From Escherichia coli (lineage in GTDB: Bacteria > Pseudomonadota > Gammaproteobacteria > Enterobacterales > Enterobacteriaceae), in assembly GCF_003790525.1 (NCBI RefSeq), contig NZ_CP033635.1: a stretch of 64,000 nt of DNA; one strand, given 5' to 3'. Numbering within the stretch: position 1 is the first letter of the stretch; each line of letters starts with the position of its first letter. The translations under genes were made by a program, and so were the position numbers. Of this stretch, positions 20,723 to 25,871 are shown piece after piece. The notes beneath the pieces are model-generated. The model was not told the DNA's origin, ran no database searches, and saw only the letters and a list, made by a program, of their open reading frames with translations.

Positions 20723-21432
20723 AAATTGAATTAACGGTGAATGGGCTGAAGATACAGGCACAGTACCAGAACGAAGAGATTGAAAATGTACATAAACCGT
20801 TGCTGCACATGTTGGCGGCCTTACAGACGGTAAATCCGCAGCGGCGTACGGTGGTTTTTCTTTGCGCTCCGCCGGGGACGGGTAAATCTACCCTAACCAC
20901 CTTCTGGGAATATATCGCGCAACAAGACCCGGAACTGCCCGCTATTCAGACGCTACCGATGGATGGTTTTCATCATTACAATAGCTGGCTGGATGCGCAT
21001 CAATTGCGCCCCTTCAAAGGCGCACCAGAGACATTTGACGTTGCGAAACTGGCGGAAAATCTGCGCCAGGTCGTGGAAGGGGATTGTACGTGGCCGCAGT
21101 ACGATCGACAAAAGCATGATCCTGTTGAAGATGCGTTGCACGTTACCGCACCACTCGTCATCGTCGAAGGAAACTGGTTGTTGCTGGACGACGAGAAGTG
21201 GCGCCAGCTTGCGCAATTTTGTGATTTCTCGATCTTTATCAAAGCTCCCGCATCTGCGTTGCGGGAGCGTCTGGTGGGGCGCAAGCTGGCGGGAGGGTTA
21301 TCGCTGGCAGACGCAGAAGCCTTTTATGACCGTACCGACGGGCCGAATGTTCGCCGGGTGCTGGAAGAGAGTCTGCCTGCAAATTTGACCTTAATGATGA
21401 CCGCTACGGGTGAATATCGTCTGATGGATTAA
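20719..21432 (+). CDS. yggC: P-loop kinase (uridine kinase/PRK-like)
   Basis: 237-aa ORF, GTG start overlapping yggD stop; Walker A APPGTGKST. Confidence 0.8.
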   Translation: MKIELTVNGLKIQAQYQNEEIENVHKPLLHMLAALQTVNPQRRTVVFLCAPPGTGKSTLTTFWEYIAQQDPELPAIQTLPMDGFHHYNSWLDAHQLRPFKGAPETFDVAKLAENLRQVVEGDCTWPQYDRQKHDPVEDALHVTAPLVIVEGNWLLLDDEKWRQLAQFCDFSIFIKAPASALRERLVGRKLAGGLSLADAEAFYDRTDGPNVRRVLEESLPANLTLMMTATGEYRLMD

Positions 21433-23447: not shown

Positions 23448-24026
23448 TTAGCGCACGGCTGCCATTGCCGGAAAATGGCGCGTGGTGCGAATCGGCAGCT
23501 GACGCAGTAAAAGCCAGACAATCACCGCTGTAAGAATTTTATCGACCAGGTTTGCGCCTATCACCGTAATCGCCACCGACTCCACCAGGTTTTGCCCCAT
23601 AGAGTGCATCCAGGCAACGAACAAATCGGCTCCGCTACCGGTGACACCGCCGAACAGCGCAGTACGCAGCGGTACAGCGACGACCGTTACCGCAAGCGTA
23701 ATAATCACGCCGCTGACAACGACTTTTGGCAGGGTGCGGAACCAACCCGCTCGCGCCAGCCAACCGGCGACCAGGCCGATGACCATCGCCACGGGCGCAA
23801 ATGCGGCGGCGATCGGGTCGGTCAGCAATCCCCAGAGTAAATTGGTCAGTAAGCCGGTCAGCATCCCGATCACCGGACCAAGCAGTACCGCGCTAATAAG
23901 TGTGCCGACGGAGTCGAGAAATATAGGTAATTTGACCATGCTGGCCAGTTGCCCGCCGATCATATTGATGGCGATAGATATAACGATCAACACCAGCGCC
24001 TGACTGGAAAAGTGGCGACGCGCCAT
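23448..24026 (-). CDS. small integral membrane protein, putative ECF substrate-capture S component
   Basis: About 190 aa, 5-6 predicted TM helices, sits first in transporter gene order; start chosen at MARRHFSSQ (ORF extends to 24125). Confidence 0.55.
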   Translation of the reverse strand: MARRHFSSQALVLIVISIAINMIGGQLASMVKLPIFLDSVGTLISAVLLGPVIGMLTGLLTNLLWGLLTDPIAAAFAPVAMVIGLVAGWLARAGWFRTLPKVVVSGVIITLAVTVVAVPLRTALFGGVTGSGADLFVAWMHSMGQNLVESVAITVIGANLVDKILTAVIVWLLLRQLPIRTTRHFPAMAAVR

Positions 24027-24048: not shown

Positions 24049-24480
24049 TTAGTTAACGGGGGAAATATGCAACTCGTCGTAACCAGAAAGCGCGCAAGGC
24101 TGGCGGCTAAACGCCAGTTCCTCAAGGCAGCCGATCACCAGTTCAAGCGTGGTCCGCACGGTACAGCCGGGCATCATATGACCGCCAAGCATCGTGCCGT
24201 GTGGATCGGAAACGCAGAGATGAAGATGTTCACCACTCTGTTCCAGCGTGCCGTTCAATGCGATGACTTCGAACTTACCGCTTAGTAGGGCAGTGTTTTC
24301 TTGCCCGGCATAGCGTAAGGCGACGTCAGTCAGACTGCCGGTACAACCTGCAATCCACGCGGCGTGAAGTTGTTGTTGCTGCGCGAAGGCGCGTAATTGG
24401 GAGAGAACTTCCTGCCCGGGGAGCAGGCGCAGCGCGTAAAAACGTGCGGAGGAAGAATATGGGTAGGGCAATGTCATCAT
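24049..24480 (-). CDS. DUF296/PPC-domain-like protein (143 aa) of unknown function, first gene of the cluster
   Basis: 143-aa ORF; family assignment from recollection of PPC-domain proteins, not verified. Confidence 0.5.
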   Translation of the reverse strand: MMTLPYPYSSSARFYALRLLPGQEVLSQLRAFAQQQQLHAAWIAGCTGSLTDVALRYAGQENTALLSGKFEVIALNGTLEQSGEHLHLCVSDPHGTMLGGHMMPGCTVRTTLELVIGCLEELAFSRQPCALSGYDELHISPVN

Positions 24481-24608
24481 TGGAGTACTCCGAAACTCGG
24501 ACGTATTGCGGATAATATCGACGCTGCATCAGTCATATTCTGATATAAGTCAGGGTTTGTGACGGCACAACGAAAAGATTTTGCTACGCTTATTCGTGAT
24601 TCTGCAAA

Positions 24609-24624
24609 GTGGAATAAATTCCAC
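24609..24624. promoter_or_regulatory. inverted repeat GTGGAA-N4-TTCCAC in divergent intergenic region, with a further copy of the motif at 24690..24699
   Basis: gtggaataaattccac at 24609..24624; ttttattccac at 24689..24699 is the same motif inverted; lies between the DUF296/ECF cluster and epd. Confidence 0.3.
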
Positions 24625-24851
24625 AGGGGCGGGGCTGAAAACGTGACGTAAGTCAGATAATTGTCTTCTTTGACTGGACAATCATTCCTTTTATTCCACG
24701 TTTCGCTTATCCTAGCTGAAGCGTTTCAGTCGATTAAATGTTCGACAATTAACCAATCAGTCGCAGTTTGCGACAGGTAAGGTTTCCCCGGACGATTTGC
24801 TGGATTACTCTGTCTGGCAAATTTGCTCAGGGAAAACCTTGCAGGAGATCT

Positions 24852-25871
24852 ATGACCGTACGCGTAGCGATAAATGGCTTCGGTCGCATCGGGCGTAATG
24901 TGGTTCGTGCTTTGTATGAATCCGGACGCCGGGCGGAAATTACCGTGGTGGCAATCAACGAACTGGCGGATGCTGCGGGCATGGCGCATTTGTTGAAATA
25001 TGACACCAGCCATGGCCGTTTTGCATGGGAAGTACGACAGGAACGCGATCAACTTTTTGTTGGTGATGACGCCATCCGCGTATTGCATGAACGTTCACTG
25101 CAATCGCTCCCCTGGCGTGAACTTGGCGTTGATGTAGTCCTCGACTGCACCGGCGTATATGGCTCCCGTGAGCATGGCGAAGCGCATATTGCCGCCGGGG
25201 CCAAAAAAGTGCTCTTTTCACATCCTGGCAGTAACGATCTCGACGCGACCGTTGTTTACGGCGTCAATCAGGATCAACTTCGTGCGGAACACCGCATCGT
25301 TTCTAACGCTTCCTGTACCACGAATTGCATAATTCCCGTCATCAAATTGTTAGATGATGCGTACGGTATTGAGTCCGGCACTGTGACCACAATTCACTCC
25401 GCCATGCACGATCAACAGGTTATTGATGCATACCATCCTGACCTGCGTCGCACTCGGGCAGCCAGCCAGTCGATCATTCCGGTCGATACTAAACTGGCCG
25501 CCGGTATCACACGATTTTTTCCGCAATTTAACGATCGCTTTGAAGCGATTGCGGTACGTGTGCCAACCATAAATGTGACGGCAATCGATTTAAGCGTGAC
25601 GGTGAAGAAACCTGTAAAAGCCAATGAAGTCAACCTGTTGCTGCAAAAAGCAGCACAAGGTGCATTTCATGGTATAGTTGACTATACGGAATTGCCGTTG
25701 GTCTCTGTAGATTTTAACCACGATCCGCACAGTGCCATTGTCGATGGCACCCAAACCCGGGTCAGTGGCGCACACCTGATCAAAACGTTGGTCTGGTGCG
25801 ATAACGAATGGGGCTTTGCTAACCGAATGCTCGACACGACGTTAGCTATGGCTACTGTTGCTTTCAGGTAA
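24852..25871 (+). CDS. epd: D-erythrose-4-phosphate dehydrogenase
   Basis: ORF 24768..25871; [37 protein letters not shown] matches Epd (GapB). Confidence 0.95.

Follow-up and report, generated by a model that had tools for sequence, protein, structure and literature searches.

A conserved TTATTCC/GGAATAA element in the epd-pgk-fbaA promoter of Enterobacteriaceae, probably the site of a putative regulator

The stretch of DNA analyzed in this study (hereafter the window) comprises 64,000 nucleotides of Escherichia coli and includes an intergenic spacer of 371 bp (24481-24851) between an ECF cluster and epd. Around this spacer, the 1-kb segment 24000-25000 shows 100% identity to strain WP2-W18-ESBL-08. 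To the left of the spacer, on the minus strand, lie the five genes of the ECF cluster, which code for a PCC-domain protein, an ECF S component, an ECF T component and two ATPases; the PCC-domain protein gene (24049-24480, minus strand) is the first of them, with its ATG at 24480. To the right, on the plus strand, lies epd-pgk-fbaA, with the epd ATG at 24852. The ECF cluster is carried by 3,327 of 5,426 complete E. coli genomes (61%), and K-12-type strains are devoid of it, yggC adjoining epd there. Divergent placement of the cluster and epd is shared by E. albertii, E. whittamii, Leclercia, Salmonella, Citrobacter koseri, Klebsiella oxytoca, Atlantibacter and an Enterobacter. Since the same arrangement recurs in several other genera, it is old and was lost in K-12. 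In Serratia, Buttiauxella and Proteus the ECF cluster is located away from epd.

Two features of the surrounding genes can be recorded here. At their 3' ends yggC (plus strand) and the last of the ECF ATPase genes (minus strand) share 29 bp (21404-21432), and the yggC C-terminus differs between the ECF-positive and the K-12 alleles, so that the presence/absence polymorphism of the cluster is not a clean insertion or deletion. The S component (23448-24026) attained 135.6 bits against the NCBIfam model 'CD3073 family putative ECF transporter S component', for which the cut-off is 180, and it is not CbiM/CbiN-like; on both these grounds the 'cobalt' label, which stems from annotation and is cited from a thesis, is unproven.

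A preliminary description of the spacer had pointed to an inverted repeat and to a second, inversely oriented copy of its motif about 80 bp away, and both are indeed present. The inverted repeat GTGGAATAAATTCCAC occupies 24609-24624 and consists, strictly, of 7-bp arms GTGGAAT/ATTCCAC around a 2-bp AA centre, while the second copy, TTTTATTCCAC, occupies 24689-24699. The exact 10-mer GTGGAATAAA occurs twice in the 64 kb when both strands are counted, both times in the epd upstream region, and at one mismatch it yields 9 matches against 4.0 +/- 2.1 expected. The dyad TGGAATNNATTCCA has no further match at up to one mismatch within the 64 kb, the chance expectation at that stringency being about 2 matches per Mb, and at up to two mismatches its match count equals expectation. 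Perfect 7+7 palindromes with a spacer of 0-4 number 40 in the 64 kb against a Markov expectation of 24, and inverted exact 10-mer pairs not more than 120 bp apart number 35 against 8.5 expected, collapsing to roughly 22 distinct places by our own count. As a class, therefore, both words are ordinary on the statistics within the window; as such statistics cannot decide the matter, the support for a non-chance origin comes from conservation.

A generic promoter and terminator scan of 24400-24900 found nothing. The real promoters are non-consensus, and they were located by means of literature and conservation. The start site of epd P0 has been mapped 132 nt 5' of the ATG, within ...TTATCCTAGCTGAA, with control by Crp and FruR (PMC2759082), which corresponds to position 24720 on the plus strand. 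From the start site position and conservation, the -10 hexamer TATCCT (plus strand) can be assigned to 24708-24713 (-12 to -7); it reads TATTCT in other genera, with T, A, T,.,., T invariant. At epd, CRP acts in class I manner upstream of the core promoter, and the Cra footprint obtained by ChIP-exo spans the -10 box together with the start site (PMC5888115). The class I CRP site, CGTGAcgtaagTCAGA (CGTGA-N6-TCAGA; 24642-24657, plus strand), is centred at -70.5, and its K-12 allele is TGTGAtgtgagTCAGA. In about 25 promoters TGTGA-N6-TCAGA keeps this distance to the start (centre -70.5), and against TGTGA-N6-TCACA the score is 8/10 for the window site and 9/10 for that of most genera. The true Cra (FruR) operator is GCTGAAGCGTTTCAGT (24715-24730, plus strand), which lies over the start site with its centre at +3.5, matches the position of the published Cra footprint and has a mean column identity of 1.00 over 17 promoters.

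The preliminary description had instead proposed a 'Cra-like half-site' between the two words. The letters gctgaaaacgtgacg (about 24635-24649) are present as written, but they constitute no conserved Cra element, being composed of an A-rich 5' flank and the left half of the CRP site. The GCTGAAA portion is confined to ECF-positive Escherichia, other genera having CCATGAAA, GGGCGAAA or GGTAAAAA in its place; as a Cra operator gctgaaaacgtgacg was rejected, since a conserved 16-bp LacI-family dyad near GCTGAAnCGnTTCAGC is not to be found there. In the same part of the spacer, some ECF-positive strains, such as E. coli Z1323PEC0010 (locus L148), have the K-12-type CRP allele TGTGATGTGAG joined to the ECF-type upstream segment (compare 24640-24660 of the window), and this junction points to recombination inside the spacer.

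The downstream copy, CATTCCTTTTATTCCAC (24683-24699, plus strand), includes TTTATTCC together with a preceding direct ATTCC repeat. With reference to the mapped start, TTTATTCC (24690-24697) corresponds to -30 to -23 and TTTTATTCCAC to -31 to -21, in the -35/spacer portion of epd P0, and CATTCC at -37 to -32 covers the -35 region. When compared with the dyad, the downstream copy is a lone ATTCC(A) half-site (8/12, centre -28.5). Each column of TTTATTCC is at least 90% identical among 17 Enterobacteriaceae promoters and exceeds the neighbouring columns, and in the same promoters the mean identity amounts to 0.98 for the block from -31 to -24, 0.86 for the CRP site and 0.85 for the -10 hexamer, next to the 1.00 of the Cra operator. 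The copy sits between the -35 and -10 regions of the mapped start, where a sigma-70 core element is expected, and its conservation could simply reflect a core promoter role.

The epd upstream regions of about 30 orthologous promoters were compared. The sample took in E. coli with and without the cluster, eight further ECF-positive genera or species, the ECF-less genera Buttiauxella, Cronobacter, Erwinia and Cedecea, and eleven distinct metagenomic epd promoters; a contig scan with the PCC protein provided 7 loci, and the broader sampling was achieved by exact-protein look-ups and one metagenome DNA-pattern scan. Every 14-mer was scored against TGGAAT-NN-ATTCCA (12 scored bases), with positions anchored on the epd start site. 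By our binomial estimate, a match of at least 10/12 would arise by chance about 4e-5 times per position and about 4e-3 times per 100-bp promoter.

In the window the core of the upstream dyad, TGGAAT-AA-ATTCCA, lies at 24610-24623 with its centre at -103.5 of epd P0. Across the sample the best dyad match was found at two positions only, -103.5/-104.5 or -92.5. The former class, 33-34 bp from the CRP centre, consists of genera with the ECF cluster (Escherichia 12/12, E. albertii 11, Salmonella 11, K. oxytoca 10 and C. koseri 8) and the latter, 22 bp from the CRP centre, of genera without it (Cronobacter 12/12, Buttiauxella 10, the metagenomic promoter L127 10, Cedecea 9 and L078 8). With the CRP site fixed at -70.5, the dyad thus stands three or two helical turns away from it, and the lineages differ by 11 bp with the phase kept; on the alignments, the distance between dyad and CRP site changes only by a full helical turn.

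The perfect palindrome is restricted to Escherichia and Cronobacter (TGGAATTTATTCCA in the latter), two separate lineages in which the centres differ, AA in E. coli and TT in Cronobacter. Elsewhere one half is kept, and which half it is varies, TGGAAT in the -103.5 class and ATTCCA in the -92.5 class. Retention of either half is as expected of a dyad site, and together with perfect symmetry in two lineages it establishes, at the level of comparative evidence, that the upstream copy has the properties of such a site. Where the cluster adjoins epd, and likewise in ECF-less E. coli, the left half TGGAATAA (24610-24617) is invariant; among the genera with the adjoining cluster the right arm is specific to Escherichia. 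The alignment columns T130 and A133-A137 show no variation across 9 genera and ECF-less E. coli. Degenerate forms of the palindrome are seen in Salmonella (TGGAATAAATTGCA), C. koseri (TGGAATAAATCGGG, 8/12), Leclercia (TGGAATAAAAATGG) and K-12 (TGGAATAAAGCTTC); in Leclercia and the Enterobacter sp. the left half alone remains. The ECF-less genera carry TTATTCCA, in the opposite orientation to the ECF-positive copy and 11 bp nearer to the CRP site, and so the inverted arrangement over about 80 bp is not a constant one, the two copies being in direct orientation and 11 bp closer in these genera.

Between the two classes the flanks of the upstream word cannot be aligned, owing to terminators and different upstream genes, and the word is retained nonetheless; its conserved bases include GG/CC besides A/T. 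Repetition within a genus was also observed, CATTTATTCC occurring twice in Buttiauxella and TTTATTCCA twice in Cronobacter. The motif fades in Erwinia and in the more distant promoters L055, L066, L107 and L137, and the agreement within the -103.5 class is not fully independent, as many of its promoters are related by descent. Comparison of orthologous regions therefore sustains the core TTATTCC/GGAATAA as conserved, but not the full palindrome, outside Escherichia and Cronobacter. Dyad symmetry, conservation and fixed phase, which are the general marks of a dimeric operator, were all found at 24609-24624. Taken together as comparative evidence, these observations identify the word as a selected cis-element of the epd promoter.

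Within E. coli, the segment 24580-24652 is carried by 3,330 genomes, of which 2,439 show no difference over its 73 bp. The variants sampled include ATTCCG in the right arm, in isolate AF5, and changes outside the dyad; in E. albertii the left arm reads GTGAAAT. The epd P0 of K-12 is the same promoter, with the start site, the -10 hexamer, the Cra operator and the CRP site identical or nearly so; its dyad is broken (7/12). ECF-less E. coli retain TGGAATAAA in an otherwise strongly diverged segment.

The palindrome had also been offered as a candidate operator of the ECF cluster, and this part of the proposal does not hold. The motif is absent upstream of the cluster where the latter is located away from epd (Serratia, Buttiauxella, Proteus) and is present at epd where there is no cluster (Buttiauxella, Cronobacter, Cedecea, metagenomic Enterobacteriaceae, K-12); among the epd promoters that bear it are some with yggC, tktA or an unrelated gene as upstream neighbour. 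Because the motif follows epd, and not the cluster, it is no operator of the ECF genes. The ECF operon has conserved promoter elements of its own at 24487-24553, at least 56 bp from the dyad, and in anchored alignments this control region is conserved far better than the dyad. It comprises, on the minus strand, the palindrome CTGACTTATATCAG (CTGAyTTATATCAG; 24553-24540, centre about -41.5) of CRP/FNR-family type, a -10 element TATTAT (24517-24512) situated 22 nt 3' of the palindrome with T, A, T,., A, T invariant in 10 genera, and, 7 nt 3' of the -10 element, the invariant ACGTCCGAGTTTCGGAGT (24504-24487) with the Shine-Dalgarno sequence GGAG. The start site is predicted at about 24504/24505 on the minus strand. 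The palindrome, the spacing and a predicted hairpin in ACGTCCGAGTTTCGGAGT are kept in Buttiauxella, with its cluster remote from epd, and the hairpin is kept in Serratia as well, which has a CRP-like TGTGA-N6-TCAGT near the same place as the palindrome.

The predicted layout of this promoter is that of a class II CRP/FNR-type promoter. As in FNR-type class II promoters, a TGAT-N4-ATCA core (CTGAT-N4-ATCAG) stands 22 nt before the -10 element; unlike the FNR consensus, the outer C/G is invariant and not T/A, so that the match is 8/10 in most genera and 7/10 in E. coli. The five-gene ECF operon of Salmonella is reported to be anaerobically activated and to cluster with FNR-activated genes (PMC11481890), and the promoter model, with its CRP/FNR-type palindrome at about -41.5, fits this anaerobic induction. 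In mRNA sense ACGTCCGAGTTTCGGAGT is invariant from Escherichia to Serratia and Buttiauxella, and the hairpin that it can form has 5 bp, includes GGAG and was computed at -8.9 kcal/mol (z = -1.4). As nothing varies in it and there is thus no covariation, ACGTCCGAGTTTCGGAGT may equally be a DNA operator at +1 to +18. No riboswitch or known RNA was recognized by Rfam within 24300-25000 at E <= 1, ACGTCCGAGTTTCGGAGT included.

In the published descriptions consulted, only CRP and Cra are reported for K-12 epd P0, and neither the words nor the dyad are mentioned (PMC2759082, PMC5888115). A literature search for the motif strings did not find the dyad sequence and returned nothing relevant. Several familiar readings of the words were tried and set aside. 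A sigma-54 reading of TGGAAT...TTCCA/TTGCA has a GG-to-GC spacing 2 nt too short, and the published sigma-54 site 'STM3072' is intragenic. For a SigmaE reading (GGAATAA-N17-TCAAA on the minus strand) the TCAAA part is not conserved, being CCGAA in K-12 and TCGAA in Salmonella; the CytR octamer GTTGCATT occurs in Buttiauxella only; and an extended -10 reading of TGgAATAAA is unlikely, with A at -7 in most genera. Compared by eye with what we take to be their consensus sequences, the DnaA box, the ARG box, Lrp, IHF and Fis, and likewise NarL 7-2-7, RcsAB, HexR, NagC/Mlc and YpdB, mismatched in spacing or in the conserved bases. Two further resemblances may serve as leads. The IclR/AllR box, which we take to be the 15-bp TGGAAAT-N-ATTTCCA, shares the TGGAA/TTCCA ends only and is 1 bp off in spacing. 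Written as TGGAA-N4-TTCCA, the dyad has a 5-4-5 geometry that suits the CRP/FNR family, with bases matching, by inspection, 6/10 for FNR (TTGAT-N4-ATCAA) and 4/10 for CRP; to our knowledge there is no member of that family with TGGAA-N4-TTCCA specificity.

Of the earlier proposal that the palindrome is an operator for a dimeric regulator, what can be upheld is a conserved dyad-like cis-element, most likely serving epd-pgk; control of the ECF cluster has to be dropped. [quoted passage not shown] In the reading that we prefer, to which we would give an even chance, the upstream dyad is a putative dimer site that cooperates with or antagonizes CRP, and the downstream copy is a half-site and possible second contact. 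A putative dimeric protein would bind TGGAAT-NN-ATTCCA 5' of the class I CRP site, sharing its helical face, and by cooperation or antagonism would affect how CRP recruits RNA polymerase; the promoter-proximal half-site may be a further contact, reached across the bend that CRP induces. The outcome would be modulation of epd-pgk-fbaA alongside CRP as activator and Cra as repressor. A dedicated factor is favoured by the two phased positions, the perfect palindromes in two lineages, the conserved GG/CC and the divergence of the flanks; it is weakened by the 7/12 dyad of K-12, by the single halves in several genera, by the commonness of palindromes in the window and by the single arm substitutions in E. 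albertii and one E. coli isolate. In tandem or 'class III' CRP promoters, and in CytR anti-activation at deoP2, an extra activator or repressor dimer sits in phase upstream of a class I CRP site. The epd dyad resembles them in standing 22 or 33 bp upstream of the CRP dimer, the 11-bp shift keeping the phase, and differs in that it is not a CRP site (4/10 to TGTGA-N6-TCACA) and no CytR octamer is generally present.

The main rival to such a factor is that none is dedicated to these words, the downstream copy being -35/spacer sequence and the upstream copy an A/T-rich element at which, for instance, the alpha C-terminal domain of RNA polymerase might dock upstream of class I CRP or a nucleoid protein such as H-NS, Lrp or Fis might dock or bend the DNA, with the likeness of the two words incidental; this is a minority possibility, yet one of real weight. 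At class I promoters the alpha C-terminal domain docks near CRP, and as the upstream word lies on the helical face of CRP, it could dock there. AATAAA/TTTATT is A/T-rich, and the word at -30 to -23 belongs to a mapped promoter with a poor -35 element (TTCCTT), where polymerase contacts are expected. Against this, a spacer is normally free to vary and this one is conserved above the -10 hexamer, and 12/12 dyads occur in two lineages; the invariant bases include GG/CC and the same 7-10-mer is repeated within Buttiauxella and within Cronobacter. Chance alone, by which an ordinary short palindrome would stand beside an unrelated promoter word, has in its favour the 40 similar palindromes and the roughly 22 places with inverted 10-mers in the window, and a dyad match count that equals expectation at up to two mismatches. 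It is nevertheless distinctly unlikely in view of the conservation data, the word being kept in about 25 promoters at two phased positions with flanks that are diverged or non-homologous.

The notion of an operator for the divergent ECF cluster, with its PCC-domain protein perhaps as the regulator, is unlikely too. In its favour, the palindrome is perfect in ECF-positive Escherichia and degenerate in ECF-less K-12, the -103.5 class coincides with the genera having the cluster beside epd, and some databases call the PCC protein 'DNA-binding' or 'putative regulator of transporter operon'. The right arm, however, is not kept in other ECF-positive genera, and the motif is missing at clusters away from epd while the epd promoter of cluster-less Cronobacter has a perfect palindrome. 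The dyad centre would moreover lie about 112 bp upstream of the predicted ECF start, and its distance to the ECF promoter palindrome, 70 bp or 6.7 turns, puts it out of phase. As for the protein, it consists of a PCC domain only (residues 13-119 of 143), devoid of a helix-turn-helix or AT-hook, and its Salmonella orthologues in the PDB (2HX0, 2NMU) are structural-genomics entries named 'putative DNA-binding protein' by homology only. The title of a thesis cited in PMC11481890 indicates that the PCC protein has been considered a potential regulator. Highly improbable, finally, is a lineage-specific operator of GalR/GalS type in E. coli, made by symmetrizing the right half of galOE. galOE reads GTGTAAACGATTCCAC, and the gal regulatory sequence matched 5,292 genomes at 99% or more. 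Its right half has the same letters as the arm ATTCCAC (12/16 overall), and the gal control region is alike in sharing ATTCCAC and TTTATTCCA and in having two sites that bracket a CRP site and promoter. In LacI-family operators the central CG step is invariant, but the epd dyad has AA in its place; the GTG/CAC ends are not kept outside Escherichia, other genera having ATGGAAT and ATTCCAT/A, so that the bases specific to GalR are not conserved. The second site at epd is a half-site in the -35/spacer portion and not an internal operator, and there is no functional link to galactose.

If a protein does bind the dyad, the picture of epd-pgk-fbaA as governed by the two regulators CRP and Cra would be incomplete, and the missing input would be a conserved one in Escherichia, Salmonella, Klebsiella, Citrobacter, Enterobacter, Cronobacter and relatives. 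Put at its widest, and only tentatively since we would rather expect it to fail than to hold, the proposal is of a third regulator of epd P0 across Enterobacteriaceae, a dimer at -92.5 or -103.5 reaching to -28.5 across the CRP bend. Through it epd-pgk-fbaA, which serves glycolysis and the entry into vitamin B6 synthesis, would respond to more than cAMP and fructose phosphates. More boldly still, the neighbouring PCC-domain protein might be this third regulator, and that domain would then have a DNA-binding role in bacteria. The broken dyad of K-12 may explain why the element went unnoticed. The element itself is a modest and locally new one, a candidate site of a familiar kind in a well-studied promoter. 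The annotation of the region is also revised, with the CRP site and the Cra operator placed correctly and the ECF operon given a testable promoter model.

Further words of the same kind were noticed in the vicinity of epd. The block CGAAAAGATTTTGCTACGCTTATTCGTGATTCTG (24568-24606) is near-identical in E. coli, K. oxytoca, C. koseri and Leclercia and is not kept in Salmonella, Atlantibacter and the Enterobacter sp.; it contains the additional words TTATTCg and ATTCtg, and together with the dyad it makes ATTC-N9-GAAT. In the yggC-epd spacer of ECF-less E. coli (K-12-type locus L002, 2942-2987) a third copy of the word, TTTATTCCAG, directly follows the yggC stop codon. It is inverted with respect to CTGGAATAAA, which lies 28 nt downstream, and is kept in all four of the ECF-less strains examined.
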